Assembly: GCA_964447005.1 (NCBI GenBank)
Contig: CAYUQP010000009.1
Location: 38,752-102,751 of the forward strand
Source of the DNA: an uncultured Bacteroidales bacterium
GTDB taxonomy: Bacteria > Bacteroidota > Bacteroidia > Bacteroidales > JAGOPY01
DNA length: 64,000 nucleotides
Direction of reading: 5' to 3'
Made by a program: the position numbers and the translations under genes. Shown piece after piece: positions 26,655 through 58,737 of the stretch. The notes under the pieces are model-generated. The model saw only the letters and a list, made by a program, of their open reading frames with translations. It was not told the DNA's origin and did no database searches. Positions within the stretch are counted from its first letter, which is position 1. Each line of letters starts with the position of its first letter.

Positions 26655-28925
26655 CTAATTCCCCGTCAGGATCAGCATGGCACCGGGTGCAGTCATGATG
26701 GACGCCCCTTCTGAAATGGTTATACCTCTGAGGATTACGTCGGAAATGATGACAGGCTGGAATGGCCCGGGCATGATGACTGCTTCATGATAGACACCCG
26801 GCACAAAGCCATCTGACCAGTTTGTCGCATCATACCAGTCGGAAGAGCTCAATCCGGTCCATGTCACGATCTGGGGAAGCGGTTCAATGACCGCGCTCCT
26901 GAGCCCCCAGGAATCCAATCCCATTTGCAATCCGGGCATGGTCGTCATTGAAATGAATCCTTCCGGCCCCATCAATCTGAAATCACCAAGGACCACCACG
27001 TACACGCCTGGTTCGAAAATATCCAGTGTGGCCACCTCAATGCTACTGCCCGGCGCCTGGATCATCATCTGGCCGGGTGTCATCACATCAGCCACCTTCA
27101 GGACAAGTTGCATATCAGCCCAGAAGGGATGCGCGGGATCAACCTGGAAATTGAAGCCGAAATTTTGCACAAATCCATCTCCCAGGATCGCGGGCAATGT
27201 GAAGAGCGGCAGATTCAACTGGTCTATTCCTTCCACGAAATGGTTAGGAACAGGGATCGGCATGAACTCCGCGGTACTGTTGTCGGATCCTCCAAAGGAG
27301 AAACCGGGATAGGTGCTGATATTAGACGGGGATTCAGAATAAACAGGTGTGCCAAGTGCCTGGACCTTCAGCCTGGAAGTGCCGTTATCATTGTGAATCC
27401 AGTAAGTTGTCGAGCCCGTCAGATCCCCGTTAATGGCCCTTCGTTCATTACCGGAAGAATAGCCCCAGGAGCCGGGATGGTTCCAGTTCCATACTGCCAC
27501 TTTGATCTTTTCACCGGTCACCGGATCAACCTTGTAAACCGTTACATTACCGCAACTACCACTTTCCCCTTCAAATTCCACAACAAGCTGCCCTCCGGGA
27601 GGGACGACAAATTCCTGCCACTGGCAGTAGGTATTAAAGGGGACCAGGGTAACATTCCTGGACTCGCAGATTGAATTGGCCGCACTGGTGCTGTCGGCAA
27701 TCCATTCATCAATCTGCTCCTGCCTGTCAGGGATTGTGGGATCAGCCCTTAAAGCCTGCAGAACCGAATGGATATATGGCAGCACGATGTTCCGTATGTA
27801 ATCATCATAGGCAAGTTTGGCCTTTACCACGGCAGCCGGGTAAGAGGCCCCGGTATCCAGCGCGTTGATCTTGGCCTGCAGATAGGAATGCACGCCTGGG
27901 TCACTGCTCCACCCTGATCTGTCATCGACCGCAGAATTCGCGTATACGGTCGCTTTGTTTTTTATGTCCAGGGTAGAAACGGCATCAACAGAATGACCTC
28001 CAAAACATTGTATGAACTCATCATAGACTGTCCTGCAGCATGAATCGATCACCTTTTGCTGCAGGTCCCTGAGATGCTCCGGCCTCAGTTTCTTTTTACC
28101 CAGCAGGTTAATCCCCCCATCGGAAGCTCCGTGATTCGTGACCATTTTCTGGAACGTGGCAGGCGTGCCGTTGTCATTGCACGCAGCTACCCGCTTTGCA
28201 ATGACCTGAAAAGTGCTGTCGATCTTAGCACTGTCTGCACTGATAACCCTTCCGGCAGGAATGCTGCCATCCCTTGGGTCGCCCTTGAAATAATGTACAA
28301 ACACATTGCTGTCACAGTACCCCAGGGAATCTACCTTGAATTTGTATAGGAATGCCAGATTGTCCCAGTATTTTTTCTTGTTGTTCAATGTGTCGCCGCC
28401 GCCACTGAGCAGAAAGGCAAATTTACAGGGATCGCAATTACCGTTCAATATCGATCGGTCGATGTCCTGGCTTTCCTTTTTCCGCTTTTCAATTTTATCC
28501 CCAGGGGCCTCGGGCACCACACCTTCTCCGGGAATGTACACCGTCACTGCGATAACATCAAGATAGGCCATAATGGTATCATTCGGATAAAAATGATCCG
28601 GGTAAGGTTCAAATGTTACCGTACCTTCTACCAGGATATACCCTCCATTCCAGGCATTATCCGGTGGTACAACCCCGCTGAGAATAATACGTGAAAAGGA
28701 AGGCAACACTTCATCTTTCATGAAATCACCATAATGATCCAGGAGCATGTCGTAATCAGTATTAGTATAATATCCGACAACCTGAATGTTATCCCCATCC
28801 TGAATGGAAGGATCGGTGTAAACTTCAATAACATTATAATAGGTATCCCTGGAAGTTTGCGATATCAGGAAAAACGGAAGTATAGTTAGAATGATAATGC
28901 TTAAAATTGGTAACGCTTTTTTCAT
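26655..28925 (-). CDS. Large secreted protein, possible clan-CD (gingipain C25-like) cysteine peptidase domain plus beta-sandwich domains
   Basis: Signal peptide. VTNHGASDGG (His) and about 33 aa later IDSCC (Cys) match gingipain-like dyad spacing. Long C-terminal Ig-like region. Weak assignment. Confidence 0.35.
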   Translation of the reverse strand: MKKALPILSIIILTILPFFLISQTSRDTYYNVIEVYTDPSIQDGDNIQVVGYYTNTDYDMLLDHYGDFMKDEVLPSFSRIILSGVVPPDNAWNGGYILVEGTVTFEPYPDHFYPNDTIMAYLDVIAVTVYIPGEGVVPEAPGDKIEKRKKESQDIDRSILNGNCDPCKFAFLLSGGGDTLNNKKKYWDNLAFLYKFKVDSLGYCDSNVFVHYFKGDPRDGSIPAGRVISADSAKIDSTFQVIAKRVAACNDNGTPATFQKMVTNHGASDGGINLLGKKKLRPEHLRDLQQKVIDSCCRTVYDEFIQCFGGHSVDAVSTLDIKNKATVYANSAVDDRSGWSSDPGVHSYLQAKINALDTGASYPAAVVKAKLAYDDYIRNIVLPYIHSVLQALRADPTIPDRQEQIDEWIADSTSAANSICESRNVTLVPFNTYCQWQEFVVPPGGQLVVEFEGESGSCGNVTVYKVDPVTGEKIKVAVWNWNHPGSWGYSSGNERRAINGDLTGSTTYWIHNDNGTSRLKVQALGTPVYSESPSNISTYPGFSFGGSDNSTAEFMPIPVPNHFVEGIDQLNLPLFTLPAILGDGFVQNFGFNFQVDPAHPFWADMQLVLKVADVMTPGQMMIQAPGSSIEVATLDIFEPGVYVVVLGDFRLMGPEGFISMTTMPGLQMGLDSWGLRSAVIEPLPQIVTWTGLSSSDWYDATNWSDGFVPGVYHEAVIMPGPFQPVIISDVILRGITISEGASIMTAPGAMLILTGN

Positions 28926-29103: not shown

Positions 29104-30687
29104 TTAGCCCGTCGCATAGAATTTCATCTCAAGTAACCTGACCTTTTTTCCCTTCAGGTCATCATGATAACACCGGAGCAACATGGGTTTGATCAGGATT
29201 CCAGCTCCGGCTGATAAAATAATCTCCGACGGGGAACTGTTTTCAGTTATGATCTTTTGCTCACCTGTTTCAAGCATCTTTTTATGGGAACCTGGCATTA
29301 AAAGGAGCGGAAAAGATAAAATATGTGCGTGTTCCAGGAAAAAGACCAGGCTGAACGCGATGTCATCGTATGATTGCCTCCAGGTCAGCCACTCATCGGG
29401 CAGGTTCTGGTAAAGTATGACTTCCTTCAAAATAAGATCCTCCGGTCCCTGGAATCTGATCTTGTCAATATTACGGTTCATCAGGACCATTTTAAGTTTA
29501 GGATTAGCCTCAGGATCAATGGTTTTTACAAACCTGCCCTGGACTGTGAACTCCCCGGCATGATGCAGGATCGAGGCAACCTGTCGTATGGCCCTTTTCG
29601 TAAAAAGATTGTTGATCACAGCAAAACCTTTGTTTTCGAGCTTTTTCCGGATGATATCAATGCCTTTTTCGTTAATGGAGGTATTATAAAGATCGATTGC
29701 TTCACTCAGACGGCCGACAATGCTGCGCTTCAATCCTTCCGGTGACAGCACCTGCATCCCCTCTCCCATTCCGAGGATCTCTTTTTCCAGCTCAAAATTG
29801 TGCTGAACCGTTAGTTCAATGGTAATACCATGGTCATCTTTGCCGATCACCTTCTGGGAGCTATGCAACGGCTTGGTAACGATATAATTGGCATGCCTGT
29901 GTGAAACATAAAGCACTATCTTTTCCGGCTTCTGGTTCGCCTCCACCGTCACCCCGATCACATCCTTGAAATAGCTTTCCGGGTTGAAGTTTTCCACCGC
30001 GATATAAGGCAACTCCGAGGGATGGACGGCCATGATCCGGTCAAGGGCCAGCGTGAGGACCGGCTCATTCTTCTTTTTAACCCCGAGGATATACCACCTG
30101 TTGCGAAATTCTTTCAGCAAATACGGATGAAAAATGAAGGTATTGGCCTGCCTTGCCCTGAACGACTGGTATGTCAGCTTAATGGCCCGTTGCTGGATGA
30201 TCGACTGGTAAAGCACGTCCAGATAATCCAGCCCCTTCAGGTTTTCGTTTTTCTCGAAATCGATGGCCGGCTTCTGCTTCTTCTTTTTAGAATAGACATG
30301 GTCTTCGAGCTTCTGTATCATCCCGTCCAGGTCCCTGAAGTGCGAAAAGCCCCTGAACTGCTTCATGAATTCCACCGCTTCCGACATTTTCTCCAGGTCC
30401 TGGTCGGTCAGCGGGATGTTGGTAATGCTGTAGCCTTTCTCTTCGTAGGTATAATACTTGTTGTCATACACGACGATGGGTGCGTTGTAGCCCAGCTTGT
30501 CGCTGCGCATCAACTGGATATCCAGTTGAACGGTCCTCCGGCTGATACCTTTTGTGATGCCTTCGTATTCATACAACGCTTCCGAGCATGCCTCTATCAG
30601 GTCTTCCAGGGTCCATTGACGATAGCGGTTTTGGAGGCATTGGTCAATGGTTTTATAACGGATTAATGCATTACGGTTGACTGGCAT
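29104..30687 (-). CDS. HTH-WYL-WCX transcriptional regulator with an additional C-terminal domain of about 190 aa and unknown function
   Basis: N-terminal HTH (ISRRTVQLDIQLM). WYL motif IKLTYQSFRARQANTFIFHPYLLKEFRNRWYILGV. WCX-like segment to about aa 340. Residues 340-527 have no recognisable family. Divergent from the ncRNA/SPFH/rtcB cluster. Confidence 0.7.
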   Translation of the reverse strand: MPVNRNALIRYKTIDQCLQNRYRQWTLEDLIEACSEALYEYEGITKGISRRTVQLDIQLMRSDKLGYNAPIVVYDNKYYTYEEKGYSITNIPLTDQDLEKMSEAVEFMKQFRGFSHFRDLDGMIQKLEDHVYSKKKKQKPAIDFEKNENLKGLDYLDVLYQSIIQQRAIKLTYQSFRARQANTFIFHPYLLKEFRNRWYILGVKKKNEPVLTLALDRIMAVHPSELPYIAVENFNPESYFKDVIGVTVEANQKPEKIVLYVSHRHANYIVTKPLHSSQKVIGKDDHGITIELTVQHNFELEKEILGMGEGMQVLSPEGLKRSIVGRLSEAIDLYNTSINEKGIDIIRKKLENKGFAVINNLFTKRAIRQVASILHHAGEFTVQGRFVKTIDPEANPKLKMVLMNRNIDKIRFQGPEDLILKEVILYQNLPDEWLTWRQSYDDIAFSLVFFLEHAHILSFPLLLMPGSHKKMLETGEQKIITENSSPSEIILSAGAGILIKPMLLRCYHDDLKGKKVRLLEMKFYATG

Positions 30688-30798
30688 AAGAATATTTTTA
30701 ATAAAAATAAAAAATATTTTCAGTTACGCAAAAAGCTTGCGCAGCGGTTTATAAATATTTGCAATGTTCTTTGATTTAATTGCTTGTTCCGATGAACA

Positions 30799-30884
30799 GG
30801 TGGTGAAAATAAGGCAGAATGGACCCCGATATTTTCAGGATGAAAATATCGGGGTGGCGAAAGGGTTCGAGTCCCTGCACCACC
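30799..30884 (+). ncRNA. Non-canonical tRNA-like RNA module A. It has a 7-bp acceptor-like terminal helix, a 14-bp perfect hairpin at the anticodon-arm position and a T-arm, but no D-arm.
   Basis: GGTGGTG (30799-30805) pairs with CACCACC (30878-30884). CCCCGATATTTTCA-gga-TGAAAATATCGGGG spans 30824-30854. The T-arm AGGGTTCGAGTCCCT spans 30862-30876. The T-loop orientation is on the + strand. Confidence 0.4.
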
Positions 30885-30989
30885 GCGATAGGATGAGGAT
30901 GAGCAAAGCCCGGGTGCAAGTTTCCCTATGGCTTCACAGTGTTGCGTCCCTTAGGCCGTAATATGCTGCTTTCCTCGTCGCATTTTATC

Positions 30990-31100
30990 ACTAAACAACT
31001 TGTAGGTCGGGGGTTCGAATCCCCCTCCGTGTCGAAAGCGGATAGCCCAGCGGTAGAGCAGCAAGCAAACATGCAGGTTCGAATCCTGCTCCCTGGTTCA
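30990..31100 (+). ncRNA. Permuted tRNA-like module B/C (Y-RNA-like, YrlA-type tRNA mimic candidate)
   Basis: The order is CTTGT-AGGTC (variable loop), GGGGGTTCGAATCCCCC (T-arm), TCCG-tgtcgaaag-CGGA (closed acceptor-like hairpin), TA (U8A9), GCCCAGCGGTAGAGC (D-arm), A, GCAAG. The two flanks CTTGT/GCAAG can pair as an anticodon-position stem. It is followed by a second T-arm-like hairpin GCAGGTTCGAATCCTGC. No canonical cloverleaf can be formed. Confidence 0.4.
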
Positions 31101-31184
31101 GGGAATGCGTAATGGTTGACGCGATGAATTGTAGGTTCATTGTTTATTGCAAGATGGTCACTTGTAAAAATGACCGCAGGAACA

Positions 31185-31417
31185 GCCGGAAGCCAGCCGG
31201 TTTCCCGGGTTTACCCGGAAAACAGTTTCAAACCGGCCGGGGCGAGGGGATCTCGCCGGTGTGCCCAGGGCTGCTTTCATCTGCATGAATTTCCGATCCG
31301 GTGCCGCTTCGGCTTCATCGCTGAGGAAAGGAGATGCAGAGAAACCAGCCTTGAAATCCCGGCTAAACCGGGCCTCCGCCGGAATGGGATGGCCGGCTTC
31401 CGCTGTTCTATTTTAAA
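31185..31417 (+). ncRNA. GC-rich structured RNA element (unknown class) closed by a long-range helix, immediately upstream of the SPFH gene
   Basis: CAGCCGGAAGCC (31185-31196) pairs with GGCTTCCGCTG (31407-31417). The interior holds hairpins CCCGGGtttaCCCGG, GCCGcttcGGC (UUCG tetraloop) and CCCGGctaaaCCGGG. GC content is far above the AT-rich flanks. The 93-aa Arg-rich ORF here is implausible. Confidence 0.3.
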
Positions 31418-32551
31418 ATGAAATCTATTAACCAATTAATACATATTGAGATGAGAAAAGTAATAATTAACGCGGGAAACGTAGGCCTGGTCTTCAGAAA
31501 AGAAGCCTACAAAAGGGTACTGACCGAAGGTTCGTACTGGATCGCACTGAATGAAAGGGTGATCGTATTCAACATGGCGAAGCCTTTCGTGCCGCCTGTC
31601 GATTTGAACATCCTGTTAAGGGATAAAGTGCTGGCTGCCTTGCTGACGATTATCAAAGTGGCCGACAATGAAATCGCCCTGAAGTTTGAGGACGGGATCT
31701 TCAAAGGGGTCCTGGTGCCTGGAAAATACGCCTTCTGGAAAGGATTGACCGACTACACGTTCACGATGGTCGACCTGGGAGTGAAAGAGATCCCGGACGA
31801 CCTGGACAAGAACCTGTTGGTGAAACCGGAAATAGCCACCTACCTGAGGGCCTACACGGTCGAATCGTTCGAAAAAGGGATCATGTTCGTGGACGGGAAA
31901 TTCGAAAAGATGCTGGACCCGGGGATTTATTTCTTCTGGAAAAACGCAATCCCGGTCTCGGTTGTAAAAGCCGACCTGAGGCAGTTGCAACTGGAAGTTT
32001 CGGGACAGGAGATCCTGACCAGGGACAAAGCAGCCCTGAGGGTAAACTTCTACGCTCAGTACAGGATCAGCGACGCGGTCAAGGCTGTGGTCGAATGCAA
32101 GGAATACGACAAACAGTTGTATATCCTGATGCAGCTGGCGTTGAGGGAATACATCGGGATGTACGCGCTGGATGAATTATTGGAAAATAAGGAGTCGGTC
32201 GCAAAAAGCATCCTGAAAAACACCGGGGAGCCGGCCGCAAGGCTGGGTGTGGAGATCGTGGCCTGCGGGATCAGGGATATCATTCTGCCCGGAGAGGTGA
32301 AGGATATCATGAACCAGGTGCTGATCGCCGAGAAAAAGGCCCAGGCTAACATCATCACCAGGAGAGAAGAAACCGCTTCGACAAGGAGCTTGCTGAATAC
32401 TGCCAAACTGATGGAAGACAACGCCATGTTGTTTAAACTGAAAGAAATGGAATATGTTGAAAAGATCGCAGATAAGATCAACACCATTTCGTTATCGGGC
32501 GGTAACCAGATCATCGACCAGTTGAGGGATATCTTCTCGCCGGGCAAATAG
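31418..32551 (+). CDS. SPFH/band-7 (stomatin/prohibitin-like, slipin-type) domain protein
   Basis: GVEIVACGIRDIILPGEVKDIMNQVLIAEKKAQANIITRREETAS is a typical SPFH C-terminal core. 377 aa with an N-terminal extension and no clear TM. Confidence 0.7.
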   Translation: MKSINQLIHIEMRKVIINAGNVGLVFRKEAYKRVLTEGSYWIALNERVIVFNMAKPFVPPVDLNILLRDKVLAALLTIIKVADNEIALKFEDGIFKGVLVPGKYAFWKGLTDYTFTMVDLGVKEIPDDLDKNLLVKPEIATYLRAYTVESFEKGIMFVDGKFEKMLDPGIYFFWKNAIPVSVVKADLRQLQLEVSGQEILTRDKAALRVNFYAQYRISDAVKAVVECKEYDKQLYILMQLALREYIGMYALDELLENKESVAKSILKNTGEPAARLGVEIVACGIRDIILPGEVKDIMNQVLIAEKKAQANIITRREETASTRSLLNTAKLMEDNAMLFKLKEMEYVEKIADKINTISLSGGNQIIDQLRDIFSPGK

Positions 32552-32736: not shown

Positions 32737-33900
32737 ATGAAACAAGTAATCACCACCGAAAATAAGCCCATCAAATTATGGCTGGATGAAATCGAAGCAG
32801 AGGCTATGGCCCAGGCCCGAAACCTGGCCAATCTGCCGTTTGCGCACAAGCACATCGCCATCATGCCCGACAGCCATGTGGGCTACGGCATGCCGATCGG
32901 CGCTGTGCTTGCCACTAAGGGAGCGGTGGTCCCCAACGCGGTGGGCGTGGATATCGGTTGCGGCATGTGCGCCATGAGGACCGACATGAAGCGCATCACC
33001 AAACTGCAGTTGAAGAAGATCATGGGAATAGCCAGGAAGCTGATCCCGGTAGGCTTCGACCATCACAGGGAAAGGCAGGATGAAGCGCTGATGCCGCAGC
33101 AGAACCGTGAATCCATGAAGATCGTGACCCGGGAATACATTTCCGCGTTAAAGCAGATCGGTACCCTGGGGGGAGGTAACCATTTTATCGAGATCCAGAA
33201 AGGATCCGACGGGTTCACCTGGATCATGATCCATTCAGGCAGCAGGAACATCGGTCTGAAAGTAGCCGATTATTATAACAGGATGGCCCAGAAACTGAAC
33301 GAGCGGTACTTTTCCAGCGTGCCAAAAGAAGTCCAGCTCGCTTTTTTCCCGATTGAGAGCGAAGAAGCCCACCAATACATGGCTGAAATGCAGTACTGCA
33401 TCGATTTTGCGCTGGCCAACCGGAAGCTCATGATGGACCGGATGATCGAATCGGTCACAGAAGTGAAGGGCAGTTTCGGCCGGGACGAGATCATCAACAA
33501 GTCGCACAATTTCGCGGCCTGGGAGCATCATTTCAACACCAATGTCCTGGTGCACAGGAAAGGGGCTACCCGTGCTTATGAAGGCGAACTGGGCATGATC
33601 CCCGGTTCACAGGGTACCAGGTCCTACATCGTAAAAGGGCTGGGCAATGAAGAAAGCTTCAAATCCTGTTCGCACGGCGCCGGCCGGAAGATGGGCCGGA
33701 GCAAGGCCACAAAAGTCCTGGATCTTGAAAAAGAGATCGCATTCCTTGAAAAGCAGGGCATCCTGCATGCCATCAGGCATAAGGGAGACCTGGAAGAAGC
33801 CGCCGGCGCTTACAAGGATATCAATGTCGTAATGGAAAACCAGAAAGACCTTGTCGACATTGTGGTGGAACTCCGTCCGCTGGCTGTGATAAAGGGGTGA
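32737..33900 (+). CDS. rtcB: RtcB-family RNA 3'-phosphate/2',3'-cyclic phosphate ligase
   Basis: VGVDIGCGM, HSGSRNIG, GGGNHFIE and SHGAGRKMGR are the metal-binding and nucleotidyl-His motifs of RtcB. 387 aa. Confidence 0.9.
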   Translation: MKQVITTENKPIKLWLDEIEAEAMAQARNLANLPFAHKHIAIMPDSHVGYGMPIGAVLATKGAVVPNAVGVDIGCGMCAMRTDMKRITKLQLKKIMGIARKLIPVGFDHHRERQDEALMPQQNRESMKIVTREYISALKQIGTLGGGNHFIEIQKGSDGFTWIMIHSGSRNIGLKVADYYNRMAQKLNERYFSSVPKEVQLAFFPIESEEAHQYMAEMQYCIDFALANRKLMMDRMIESVTEVKGSFGRDEIINKSHNFAAWEHHFNTNVLVHRKGATRAYEGELGMIPGSQGTRSYIVKGLGNEESFKSCSHGAGRKMGRSKATKVLDLEKEIAFLEKQGILHAIRHKGDLEEAAGAYKDINVVMENQKDLVDIVVELRPLAVIKG

Positions 33901-54891: not shown

Positions 54892-56388
54892 TCATTCGAT
54901 CTTCTCCTTCCTCCCGTCGGCATAGCACCGGAACAGCTCGTCCCCGTTGATCAGCAATCCCTGCGAAGATTTCCCGCTCTCGTCGATGACCACATCCGCC
55001 GAAATGACCTTTCCATTGAAAGCAGCAGTGATGGTACTCATTTCGTTATGCCCAATGATCATTTTTTTAAGATTCTTCTCGGCTAAATATTCGTCGACAA
55101 ATTCCTGTGTGGCTTCCATTTCGTTGCCGTAAGCTCCATAGCCCCGGTACCACTGCGGGCCGAATTCGCCGAGGATCCTGTCGCGGGCGCTCTCTTTTTC
55201 AATGATGTAATCGGAATTAAGATATGCCCTCACCGAATCGTTAACAGCCTGGTCTGAGTAATTAAATGCTGCAAATTCGGATGAGATCCCCGCGTGTGAA
55301 AATAAATAATCGTTGATCCTTAAAATAACATTCTGGCTTCGGAGCCAGCTCCCCAGCACTGTGTTTCTTTCAAACAACTGCGAATAATCGAGTTGAAAAT
55401 ATTTTGTAAAAAAATCGTATTTATCGTTCAGGTACCGGTAATCACGGGTTAAGGCCATCATTTCGTGGTTTCCGAGCAGGAGATGCACATTTCCGCCAGA
55501 TTCCCGCGCTTGTCGTTGAAGGCGGTGCAGGAACCAGAGGGTCTCGGTTACTGAACCACCGCGGTCAAATACATCCCCTAGCAAAATGAGCCGGCCGTTC
55601 CCGAAGGTCCAGTTCTGCTCCGGATCGATGATCCCGTTATTGATCAGCAGGGACAGCATCTGGTGAAATTTTCCGTGAATATCTCCTACCGTGAAAATGT
55701 TCCCGCTTGTCACCAGGTGGCAGGAATCCGGAGCGTACCGGCAACTGATGTAATAATTCTTTGTATCCCATCCAAATCCCTGCACCATAGTATCCCCTTC
55801 CGTGTGCCTGATGGTCTTCTCGATGATCCCGGTGAGCTTCCTTTCACGGTCATGATCAAAATAGGCCATGACCACCTGCTCACTGTTTTCACGGTAAATG
55901 TATGGCCCATCCTGCATTGAAGCCATCGTGTCGCGCTTTGCGCACAGCTTTTCCATCGACACCAGGTATTTGTAGGCCGGTGAGGTCCCGTAATTGTATG
56001 CAAAATCACTGGCCAGCCGGCCCTTTTTGTTTTTATGAAGCGGATCGGCGCCACGGTCAACCAAAATTTTGCAGAGCTCTTTATTATTAAGCCCTGCGGC
56101 GTTGATCAGGGGCGTATTCAGCTTGTCGTCCGTCTCATTCACCTCCGCCCCGTATTCGATCAGCAACCGTGCAGCCCTGCCCTGGTCAAACCGGATCGCC
56201 CAATTCAGCAGGGAACGGTCATCATCTTTCAGATTCGGGTCAACACCGCTGTCCAGGTAAGCCTTTAGAAGGATGAGATCCCCGCTTTTAATGGCGGTTA
56301 AAACAGCCTTTCCATCCTGCCCCCATCCCGATAAGGACAAAGCCATAACCACAACCAAAAACCCTATTTTAATCAATCTGCTATTCAC
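54892..56388 (-). CDS. Secreted ankyrin-repeat protein fused to a PPP-family metallophosphoesterase (Ser/Thr phosphatase/ApaH-like) domain
   Basis: Signal peptide. 3-4 ankyrin repeats (DDRSLLNWAIRFDQGRAARLLIEYGAEVN...). GDIHGKF, GDVFDRGG and GNHE are PPP signatures. Confidence 0.7.
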   Translation of the reverse strand: MNSRLIKIGFLVVVMALSLSGWGQDGKAVLTAIKSGDLILLKAYLDSGVDPNLKDDDRSLLNWAIRFDQGRAARLLIEYGAEVNETDDKLNTPLINAAGLNNKELCKILVDRGADPLHKNKKGRLASDFAYNYGTSPAYKYLVSMEKLCAKRDTMASMQDGPYIYRENSEQVVMAYFDHDRERKLTGIIEKTIRHTEGDTMVQGFGWDTKNYYISCRYAPDSCHLVTSGNIFTVGDIHGKFHQMLSLLINNGIIDPEQNWTFGNGRLILLGDVFDRGGSVTETLWFLHRLQRQARESGGNVHLLLGNHEMMALTRDYRYLNDKYDFFTKYFQLDYSQLFERNTVLGSWLRSQNVILRINDYLFSHAGISSEFAAFNYSDQAVNDSVRAYLNSDYIIEKESARDRILGEFGPQWYRGYGAYGNEMEATQEFVDEYLAEKNLKKMIIGHNEMSTITAAFNGKVISADVVIDESGKSSQGLLINGDELFRCYADGRKEKIE

Positions 56389-57504: not shown

Positions 57505-58737
57505 ATGTTCAAAATTGAAATAACTTTGTTCAGGATAACTGAAAAAAATTTACAACGAAGTATGGGTAAAATTAATGAACTTTTAATTACCGGATCAGAA
57601 AAGTATATCTCCGGTCTGATGGCTGAGAAGTTGCCTGAAAAAGTCGTTTTTCATAATTTCAGCCATACGCAGAGGATCGGTGAGTATGCTGAGATCATCG
57701 GGCAACATGCCGGTCTGACTGATGAGGAAATGGATCTCCTCAAAATATCGGTATTGTTTAAAGATTCCGGTTTTGTAAATTCTTACGAAAACCACCTGGA
57801 GGAAAGCGTTGCCATCGCTACCAAATTCCTTTCAGAAAATAATGTTGACCAGCCGGCCATATCCAGAATCTCAGAGCTCATCAGGGCGACAAGGTTTCCA
57901 CAGCAGCCAAAAGACAAGGTTGCGGAGGTACTTTGTGATGCCGACATGATGTACATCACGGCTGACGATGCCATCGAACTGTTCGATCTGCTTTATTTTG
58001 AAAGGGCCCTGGTTAAACCGGGTTCCGAGAAGCGTGCCACCTTTGAAAAAAATCTCACGGATCTGTTTTCACAGCATACTTATTTCACGGAATACGGGCA
58101 AAAAATACTTCAGCCGAAAAAGGAAGATACCATCAAGCGGATTTGCGAACGGATAAAGCACAGAAAGCTGATCGACGGTAAAAAAGAAACCCCCGTTAAA
58201 AAGAAGTTCGAATACACCCGCGGTGTGGATACCATGTTCCGTATCACAGCCCGGAACCAGATCAACCTGAATTCCATAGCCGATAACAAATCGAACATCC
58301 TGATCTCGGTCAATGCCATCATCATTTCGATCATCATCACCATGCTGGCCGGGAATATCGGGAATATGTCGCAGGATATTGTGCCGATCCTGGTGCTGCT
58401 GGTGATCTGCCTGGCAACCATCATCATCGCGATTTTATCAACGCGGCCGAACATTATAAACAGTGAGTTTACAAAGGAAGACCTCGAGAACATGAAGGTT
58501 GACCTGACTTTCTTCGGAAATTTCATCAAGATCGATTACGATGAATACCTGAATTCATTGAAGGAAATGATGCAGGATGACGAGCATCTGTATTCGATGC
58601 TGATCAAAAACCAGTATTCCCTGGGAAAGATCCTTTCAAAAAAGTTCAGGCTGGTGCGGATTGCTTACAATGTTTTCATGTTCGGGATCATTTTCACCGT
58701 GCTTGTTTTCCTCATGAATTATCTGATTGTTCATTAG
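57505..58737 (+). CDS. HD-domain phosphohydrolase-like N-terminal domain fused to a C-terminal 2-TM module (effector-like)
   Basis: VVFHNFSHTQRIGEYAE...LFKDSGF...LCDADMM has HD-fold spacing, with K replacing the second H. The C-terminal 180 aa has two long hydrophobic helices (IISVNAIIISIIITMLAG, AYNVFMFGIIFTVLVFLMNYLIV) separated by a charged segment. Confidence 0.5.
   Translation: MFKIEITLFRITEKNLQRSMGKINELLITGSEKYISGLMAEKLPEKVVFHNFSHTQRIGEYAEIIGQHAGLTDEEMDLLKISVLFKDSGFVNSYENHLEESVAIATKFLSENNVDQPAISRISELIRATRFPQQPKDKVAEVLCDADMMYITADDAIELFDLLYFERALVKPGSEKRATFEKNLTDLFSQHTYFTEYGQKILQPKKEDTIKRICERIKHRKLIDGKKETPVKKKFEYTRGVDTMFRITARNQINLNSIADNKSNILISVNAIIISIIITMLAGNIGNMSQDIVPILVLLVICLATIIIAILSTRPNIINSEFTKEDLENMKVDLTFFGNFIKIDYDEYLNSLKEMMQDDEHLYSMLIKNQYSLGKILSKKFRLVRIAYNVFMFGIIFTVLVFLMNYLIVH

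Follow-up and report, generated by a model that had tools for sequence, protein, structure and literature searches.

Mimics of transfer RNA (tRNA) in the operons of the RNA ligase RtcB were reportedly described as YrlA in 2013-2014. In YrlA (Rfam family RF02553) a variable loop, a T-arm, an acceptor stem closed by a loop, the U8-A9 dinucleotide and a D-arm follow one another in that order, with a stem at the position of the anticodon stem; the T-loop and D-loop nucleotides of the elbow are conserved, there is neither a CCA end nor an anticodon loop, and rtcB is encoded alongside. This is the tRNA-like effector domain of bacterial Y RNAs, found for instance in rsr-yrlBA-rtcBA of Salmonella; its crystal structure is 6CU1. 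YrlA has in addition a long terminal stem that binds Ro/Rsr, and an rsr gene as neighbor. The stretch analyzed here, 64,000 nucleotides (nt) of contig CAYUQP010000009.1 from an uncultured Bacteroidales bacterium (“the window,” with positions counted from its first letter), contains an RNA in which the tRNA-like domain recurs with all of these traits, whereas the Ro/Rsr-binding stem and the rsr neighbor are both lacking. The modules of the window RNA are, moreover, arranged in tandem inside a multi-domain RNA of ~520 nt, and the neighboring genes encode SPFH and WYL proteins rather than Rsr and RtcR.

Two further precedents are relevant. The rsr-yrlBA-rtcBA operon (Hughes et al., 2020; PMC7790460) resembles the window locus in combining RtcB with tRNA-mimic noncoding RNAs and with a regulator that has a sensor domain for nucleic-acid ligands, and both are linked to tRNA damage; there, the genes are those of the sigma-54 activator RtcR, with its CARF domain, and of Rsr, whereas the window has a divergent WYL-WCX protein and an SPFH protein. 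Burroughs and Aravind (2016), as summarized in bioRxiv 10.1101/312249, predicted that Band-7 proteins with a cognate tRNA-like RNA are RtcB cofactors, and the same summary has YrlA occasionally adjoining Band-7 proteins. The Band-7-associated tRNA, as presented there, likewise has its gene beside a Band-7/SPFH gene and rtcB, and was proposed as the cognate RNA of the SPFH scaffold. The kind of RNA is therefore already known, from YrlA in RtcB operons and, as far as that summary goes, from the 2016 prediction. No description was found in the searchable literature of a Ro-free YrlA-type module, of the tandem arrangement, of an anticodon-like hairpin with a free triplet, of the pseudoknot and flanking domains, or of the WYL-regulated context.

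The RNA lies in a 730-nt gap (30688-31417) that separates the WYL regulator gene from the SPFH and rtcB genes. It is a single multi-domain structured RNA (~30799-31320), a chain of tRNA mimics on the SPFH/rtcB strand. Across the Bacteroidota it is conserved at a fixed position upstream of SPFH, its helices covary, and the register in which it folds is the permuted one. A sequence-only reading of the window had proposed noncanonical tRNA-like modules at 30795-31100 and had looked to conservation and covariation in related genomes for their confirmation; both are strong. The motifs in that interval are real, while its end was set too early, the folded RNA running on to 31320; what had been described as one unit, “module B/C,” has a permuted module B as proposed but is really two permuted modules in tandem, the second cut short by the boundary at 31100.

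Three T-arm boxes, AGGGTTCGAGTCCCT (30862-30876), GGGGGTTCGAATCCCCC (31009-31025) and GCAGGTTCGAATCCTGC (31073-31089), and a D-arm box, GCCCAGCGGTAGAGC (31045-31059), all on the + strand, were recovered where that reading had placed them, as were a 7-base-pair (bp) acceptor helix and a 14-bp hairpin. The T-loop pattern GGTTCRANTCC occurs four times in the 64-kilobase (kb) window, against 0.51 expected; three of the four occurrences fall within 223 nt at this locus, and the fourth is inside a real tRNA-Ser. The only tRNAs called in the window by ARAGORN, and by Rfam at gathering score, are this tRNA-Ser (22219) and a tRNA-Met (47115). Neither program calls anything within 30688-31417, in agreement with the earlier statement that no ordinary tRNA is present there. 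The gene context proposed at the same time, a divergent WYL gene and then SPFH and RtcB, is borne out by Pfam: a WYL-WCX transcription regulator of 527 amino acids (29104-30687, - strand; WYL 4.6e-13, WCX 2e-9), an SPFH/Band-7 protein of 377 amino acids (31418-32551, + strand; Band_7 1.1e-33) and an RtcB RNA ligase of 387 amino acids (32737-33900, + strand; RtcB 1.8e-107).

Permuted tRNA-like modules in tandem

Module 1 (30998-31066, + strand), the former module B, is defined by its match to Rfam YrlA, by a covariance model (R1) and by covariation. Its closing stem pairs CTTGT (30999-31003) with GCAAG (31061-31065); a variable-loop-like AGGTC then precedes the T-arm (31009-31025), a closed acceptor-like hairpin (31026-31042), a TA resembling U8-A9 (31043-31044) and the D-arm (31045-31059). 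The order given by the sequence-only reading, CTTGT-AGGTC-(T-arm)-TCCG..CGGA-TA-(D-arm)-A-GCAAG, is exactly what the letters spell. The D-stem has a C-A mismatch in the window, where most relatives have U-A. In a permissive scan of 30600-31500, YrlA was the sole meaningful Rfam match, at 31001-31064 (model positions 23-86 of 114, 31.5 bits, E = 1e-4). Matches to mascRNA, plastid untranslated-region and small nucleolar RNA families, all below threshold, were discarded as T-arm-only or chance. In one related locus (L008) both tandem modules match YrlA, over positions 23-89 and 30-81, at 45.2 and 40.1 bits.

Eighty related loci were fetched from species-representative genomes with the SPFH protein as anchor (SPFH identity 57-66%). 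By their record titles nearly all are from Bacteroidota (Cytophagales, Bacteroidales, Pedobacter, Chitinophagaceae, Saprospiraceae, Flavobacteriaceae); the titles of two metagenome-assembled genomes name other taxa, Chlorobiota and Thalassobius. Two T-loop boxes are present in nearly all loci, 59-88 nt apart and usually ~450 and ~390 nt upstream of SPFH. Module 1 from 55 of the loci was aligned by sequence only (alignment A1), and R1 was built from this alignment. In A1, 94.9% of module 1 cells pair and the covariation score reaches 0.647, whereas sliding the partners gives 46-52% and 0.10-0.17; of the 20 pairs, 17 have changed on both sides. The invariant columns (the T-loop, UA at positions 8-9, A14, G18/19 and A21) are the tertiary-core positions of tRNA, the nucleotides that build its elbow. 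R1 finds module 1 in ~71 of the 80 loci at 53-85 bits (at least 58 bits in 67 of them). Its strand is that of SPFH in every case, and its usual distance from the SPFH gene is 400-480 nt on the upstream side; the window copy scores 67.3 bits. The permuted order of module B, with a stem at the anticodon-stem position, as first read from one sequence, is thus upheld by conservation and covariation in 55 loci.

Matches to R1 are also found where two tRNA genes adjoin, with a T-arm, two acceptor strands and the next D-arm in succession (L051, 5010-5338; L070, 3747-4515). These matches suggest that the permuted module could stem from a tandem tRNA duplication.

Module 2 (31069-31140, + strand), recognized with R1 and by its recurrence in the related loci, has a T-arm (31073-31089), an acceptor-like hairpin TCCCTG-GTT-CAGGGA (31090-31104) followed by the dinucleotide AT, a D-arm GCGTAATGGTTGACGC (31107-31122) and, in addition, an anticodon-arm-like hairpin ATGAA-TTGTAGG-TTCAT (31124-31140). 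R1 gives 28.2 bits at 31069-31127 (E about 1e-7 locally), and a second module follows module 1 in most loci. It is absent in some (L007, L010, L012, L017, L029), where module 1 is followed by the anticodon-like hairpin and the pseudoknot; module 2 is therefore optional. Four other loci (L025, L033, L034, L039) have an extra anticodon-arm-like hairpin inserted. The stem of the anticodon-like hairpin is ATGGA/TCCAT in most loci, and its 7-nt loop has the form Y-U-NNN-R-A, in which the middle triplet is hypervariable: 30 loci have 22 different ones.

Could the two modules instead be read in the ordinary tRNA register, with an acceptor formed by the 3′ strand of hairpin 1 and the 5′ strand of hairpin 2? 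In that register the Rfam tRNA model scores 25.2 bits at 31040-31092 (threshold 29), taking in D-arm 1 and T-arm 2 with no anticodon arm, and it scores 31-41 bits in some relatives. Across loci, acceptor-like hairpins 1 and 2 pair at 5.7 and 5.6 of 6 positions, whereas the ordinary-register acceptor reaches 3.5 of 6, a control with strands from different loci giving 3.15. Since pairing is high in the hairpin register and at background in the ordinary one, the permuted register is the conserved fold, and a mini-tRNA composed of D-arm 1 and T-arm 2 was rejected.

A second comparison used seven close relatives, found through close WYL homologs (WYL proteins 67-71% identical; alignment A6), in which the intergenic region keeps 70-80% nucleotide identity. 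An eighth (L081; WYL 94% identical) covers only the first 179 nt of this region, at 99%. RNAalifold on A6 predicts the linker domain described below and the 3′ domain, together with every arm of modules 1 and 2. Of 138 proposed pairs, 24 have changed on both sides, against 3-7 for slid-partner controls, and 96% of cells pair; for the linker and the 3′ domain these statistics are partly circular, their structures having been predicted by RNAalifold on blocks of the same alignment.

Module A, linker, pseudoknot and 3′ domain

Module A (30799-30884, + strand), identified by fold and synteny, precedes the permuted modules. Its 7-bp acceptor helix (GGTGGTG, 30799-30805, with CACCACC, 30878-30884) encloses an unpaired D-region with a conserved AATGG (30806-30823), a perfect 14-bp hairpin in place of the anticodon arm (30824-30837 with 30841-30854), a 7-nt variable region and the T-arm (30862-30876). 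The predicted fold has an energy of -38.6 kcal/mol, with z = -4.35 relative to shuffled sequences. Among close relatives, 100% of the acceptor cells and 98% of the hairpin cells pair, and L085 has compensatory changes.

An earlier comparison of module A with YrlB has to be given up: in relatives its position is that of a tRNA-Tyr-like “band-7-associated tRNA.” In 18 related loci ARAGORN calls the element upstream of the permuted modules as tRNA-Tyr(GTA), and these elements are a lineage of their own, with the D-loop UGGAGAGU and a short variable arm, distinct from the other tRNA-Tyr genes in the loci, which are presumed to be housekeeping copies. A longer hairpin replaces the anticodon arm in L004 and L052 as well (alignment A3), and L004 shares a CCCGATA..TATCGGG core with module A of the window. 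In L011 and L016 the tRNA-Tyr-like element stands immediately before SPFH, and the remaining parts of the RNA are missing. On grounds of synteny, not of score, module A is a degenerate form of the band-7-associated tRNA, a class of RNA that to our knowledge has never been validated by experiment. The order of module A, permuted modules, SPFH and RtcB in the window is the same in the relatives; ARAGORN and Rfam detect no complete cloverleaf in module A of the window, whereas the syntenic elements of the 18 relatives do have one. As the summary in bioRxiv 10.1101/312249 portrays it, the Band-7-associated tRNA resembles authentic tRNA, whereas module A has lost the D-stem, variable arm and anticodon loop and has the 14-bp hairpin.

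The tRNA-like domain of transfer-messenger RNA (tmRNA) also offers a parallel to module A, in its acceptor helix, T-arm, stemless D-region and long helix at the place of the anticodon stem; the locus differs in that a CCA, an alanine identity pair, a tag reading frame and an SmpB context are all missing. Rfam tmRNA gave partial matches of 19 bits (30927-31026) and 8.5 bits (30862-30876), mainly to the T-arm, against a gathering score of 47, and was rejected.

Between modules A and 1 is a folded linker domain (30887-30989, + strand), predicted by RNAalifold from the seven close relatives, in which an outer stem, GAUAGGAUG/CAUUUUAUC, surrounds two hairpins. Its conserved strings include CAUAGUG and AUAUGCUGCUU; linker motifs occur in 28 to 41 of the 71 loci, and the linker can be aligned with distant loci (A3). 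In linker helix 7, 5 of 11 pairs have changed on both sides among the close relatives.

Downstream of module 2 is an H-type pseudoknot, CAAG-ATGGTCA-CTTG-TAAAAA-TGACC (31150-31175, + strand), recognized by its recurrence and by a comparison of each loop with its own tail. CAAG and CTTG form P1 around the loop ATGGTCA, and after the A-rich linker TAAAAA the tail TGACC pairs with GGTCA of the loop as P2. Most loci share the design (A)GAAG-N7-CTTC(U)-UAAAAA-N5. Because the A-rich linker is not of constant length, the MAFFT alignment (A4) misplaced the 3′ strand of P2; loops and tails from the same locus were therefore compared with loops and tails from different loci. Complementarity between a locus's own loop and tail is complete in 71% of loci, compared with 11% for the mixed combinations, and P2 (helix 17) has two compensatory pairs among the close relatives. 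In size and topology the element resembles the preQ1-I riboswitch, with its P1 of 4-5 bp, loop of ~7 nt, UAAAAA linker and P2 between loop and 3′ tail; it differs in lying ~250 nt from the start codon and in a loop sequence that varies freely, and Rfam PreQ1 gave no match in 30600-31500 even at E up to 10. Viral 3′ tRNA-like structures, too, have a pseudoknot close to tRNA-like elements.

A 3′ folded domain (31188-31320, + strand), predicted by RNAalifold from the close relatives, is situated after the pseudoknot and ahead of the SPFH start codon. It combines a long-range stem (31188-31194 with 31272-31278) and inner stems with a terminal hairpin (31299-31320). Among the close relatives, 89-98% of cells pair in its helices 18-21, and three pairs of helix 21 have changed on both sides. 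The motifs GGAUACCG and GAAAGYAG occur in about half of the distant loci. Support for this domain is weaker than for the other parts of the RNA.

Proposed role and alternative explanations

On balance, and with some reserve, we favor the explanation that the RNA is a partner or decoy of an SPFH-RtcB repair module, a Ro-independent counterpart of the Ro/Y-RNA particle, under the WYL regulator. The RNA would be transcribed with SPFH-rtcB or just ahead of it, in the manner of the Y RNAs of rsr-yrlBA-rtcBA. The L-shaped bodies that mimic tRNA would be the RNA partner of a soluble SPFH scaffold, the presumed protein partner, and of RtcB; the tRNA-shaped surface might recruit tRNA-binding enzymes, compete with tRNA-cleaving toxins, or both. 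The WYL-WCX protein, presumed to be the regulator of the SPFH-rtcB locus, would control it in response to nucleic-acid fragments. A role as competitive inhibitor of an anticodon nuclease has been proposed for the YrlA tRNA-like domain (PMC7790460).

Several points count against this explanation. Each functional statement in it derives from synteny and analogy. The exact Bacteroidota promoter box TAnnTTTG was not found on either strand of 30600-31450, and a purely cis-acting leader would be equally possible; a sigma-70 promoter scan is not meaningful for Bacteroidota. With a model of the band-7-associated tRNA (R2), module A scores 22.6 bits, below the ordinary tRNAs of the window (38 and 29.9), and because R2 fails to separate module A from ordinary tRNAs, their proposed relationship depends on synteny and intermediate forms. 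The structure of the 3′ domain was scored on the same seven sequences from which it was predicted. Finally, the distinction drawn here from the work of Burroughs and Aravind (2016) relies on its summary in bioRxiv 10.1101/312249.

The main rival, which is compatible with the favored explanation, is a cis-regulatory leader or bait sensor. The RNA would be the 5′ leader of the SPFH-rtcB messenger RNA (mRNA), its tRNA-like bodies and anticodon-like loop would be toxin targets, and cleavage followed by religation by RtcB would alter mRNA stability or translation, or would free fragments with 2′,3′-cyclic phosphates to be sensed by the WYL protein. This we consider unlikely, although several points speak for it: the RNA immediately precedes SPFH, both being on the + strand, where no terminator-like site separates them; the pseudoknot and 3′ domain are near the start codon; the anticodon-like loop keeps its Y-U-NNN-R-A frame around a hypervariable triplet; and the tRNA genes that accompany the relatives belong to species attacked by known anticodon nucleases. 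WYL domains, for their part, are sensors of nucleic-acid ligands. In Salmonella, RtcR senses cleaved tRNA ends, but YrlA is not cleaved by the inducing nuclease (PMC7790460); further difficulties are that no known riboswitch or leader family in Rfam matches the RNA and that module 1 offers no anticodon loop to cut. An elaboration, which strikes us as quite doubtful, would make the RNA a built-in toxin bait, a string of tRNA bodies with an anticodon stem-loop at its end and a triplet tuned to each lineage. Anticodon nucleases would cleave it together with real tRNAs; fragments ending in 2′,3′-cyclic phosphate would trigger WYL and through it SPFH-RtcB, and RtcB would re-seal both the bait and the tRNAs. 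If true, this would amount to a self-resetting sensor of RNA damage, independent of Ro and RtcR.

It is very improbable that this is a Y RNA of the classical kind (YrlA/YrlB), which would bind a Ro60/Rsr protein whose gene is elsewhere in the genome and would link that protein to an effector. The sequence-only reading had spoken of YrlA/YrlB-like noncoding RNAs; as regards module B, Rfam upholds a YrlA-type tRNA mimic, while in the strict sense the RNA is not a Y RNA. YrlA is its best Rfam match, and YrlA is found beside rtcB in several phyla (PMC7790460 and, as far as its summary extends, bioRxiv 10.1101/312249). The match is nevertheless limited to the tRNA-like part: model positions 1-22 and 87-114, the terminal stem with the Ro/Rsr-binding site, are unmatched, and a closing stem of just 5 bp, with another T-arm beginning 7 nt beyond it, leaves no room for a Ro-binding helix. 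The YrlA gathering score of 69 is reached neither in the window nor in any of 11 related loci. No TROVE domain (Ro60/rsr) was found in the 28 largest open reading frames (ORFs) of the window (334-1115 amino acids, every ORF of at least 344 among them), as the claim that it holds no rsr gene had it, and no TROVE-sized family recurs within 6 kb in the 80 loci. Functional tRNA genes are, if anything, less credible still, whether minimal tRNAs in the ordinary register or permuted genes like those of Cyanidioschyzon merolae and other algae, which mature through a circular intermediate, here with ligation by RtcB. The algal genes share with the window modules a T-arm and 3′ acceptor strand that precede the 5′ acceptor strand and D-arm, with a short linker; RtcB joins tRNA halves in archaea and animals, according to the same summary; module 2 has a full set of arms in permuted order; and there are the weak ordinary-register tRNA matches in the window and in some relatives. 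Algal permuted tRNAs, however, become ordinary tRNAs with anticodon arms and CCA ends, whereas module 1 lacks any anticodon arm, module 2 has no conserved triplet, loops of 3-9 nt close the acceptor, and neither a CCA nor a conserved processing site is evident. ARAGORN and Rfam at threshold, moreover, detect no canonical cloverleaf in the gap, and ordinary-register acceptor pairing is at background. Least credible, to the point of being almost negligible, are nonfunctional relics, either decayed copies from a tRNA array or attachment-site (att) remnants of an integrated element. Real tRNA arrays lie just upstream in many relatives, the R1 matches at tandem tRNA junctions allow descent of the modules from tandem tRNAs, and module A is degenerate. 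Against this, module position and order are kept and helices change by compensation in ~71 loci, the intergenic region is 70-80% identical in close relatives whose WYL proteins are 67-71% identical, and no integrase was found among the scanned ORFs beside the locus. There is no att context either, so that the att-site origin named as a possible refutation of the sequence-only reading did not materialize, and the RNA has no BLAST match in phage and plasmid collections.

What tRNA-like RNAs do in bacterial RNA-repair operons is a long-standing question, which this family of loci makes directly testable. It offers a Ro-free system with a ~520-nt RNA whose modules, anticodon-like loop and pseudoknot can be mutated separately, together with a soluble-looking SPFH protein, one RtcB and one WYL protein, and it occurs in cultivable Bacteroidota such as Pedobacter, Chryseolinea, Roseivirga and Carboxylicivirga. 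The family also shows that a YrlA-type permuted fold exists without the Ro-binding stem, and therefore as an independent module rather than solely as an attachment to Y RNAs.

Neighboring genes and related loci

Same-strand tRNA genes lie just upstream, within ~2.5 kb of the YrlA-like module, in 37 of 71 loci, with 100 ARAGORN calls in total (for example L070, 3263-4557, and L065, 301-1404); the window itself has no such arrays. Dominant among the calls are Tyr-GTA (18), Gln (13), Asp (10), Lys (8), Glu (7), Asn (7), Phe (5) and His (4), and among them there is no Gly, Ala or Thr and only one Val. These eight tRNAs are targets of colicin E5, colicin D, PrrC and zymocin-type nucleases. Their arrays tie the loci to defense against anticodon nucleases.

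RtcB is downstream of SPFH in ~62 of the 80 loci, and a divergent WYL homolog is upstream of the RNA in ~42. Other recurrent neighbors are a TPR protein, a PrfH-like RF-1 protein, RlaP and an AAA_33 kinase, all of them RNA-repair themes. No rtcA was found among the scanned ORFs adjoining SPFH-rtcB in the window, and viral contigs yielded no SPFH relative. The idea that WYL here replaces RtcR is plausible on the basis of synteny, which is the whole of its basis.

In the divergent promoter region between the WYL start codon and module A is a palindrome, TTACGCAA-N5-TTGCGCAG (30724-30744, no strand assigned), kept as TTACGCAA-N5-TTGCGTAA in six close relatives (A6). This palindrome is a candidate operator for the WYL regulator. 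In L086 a tRNA-like insertion (~1940-2030 on the - strand of that locus; A6 columns 100-190) with a Lys-like anticodon loop, TTTTTAA, stands between the palindrome and module A, which shows that gain and loss of tRNA-like units occur here.

No transmembrane helix is evident in the 377-amino-acid SPFH protein, which judging from its sequence is probably soluble and without a membrane anchor. In its N-terminal 146 amino acids (31418-31860, + strand) the first SPFH beta-hairpin motif, GxVFRK..L.PGxYW, is present in additional copies, and one of these matches Pfam Band_7 weakly (E = 5e-4). Many WYL homologs (P0022-P0120) have a PhyH domain (phytanoyl-CoA dioxygenase, PF05721) at the C-terminus; in the WYL protein of the window, Pfam matches nothing in the C-terminal 197 amino acids, even with E relaxed to 5. 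The WYL gene is directly followed by a 756-amino-acid ORF (26655-28925, - strand), with a 751-amino-acid ORF at the same position in the closest relative, L081 (2097-4352). Neither has a Pfam match, for the window ORF even in a relaxed search; the ORF may be part of the locus.

Farther away, the window encodes a Pycsar effector-domain (PycTM) protein (57505-58737, + strand) and, nearby, a protein with ankyrin and metallophosphoesterase domains (54892-56388, - strand). The ankyrin-metallophosphoesterase architecture also adjoins a WYL homolog on another contig (P0003).

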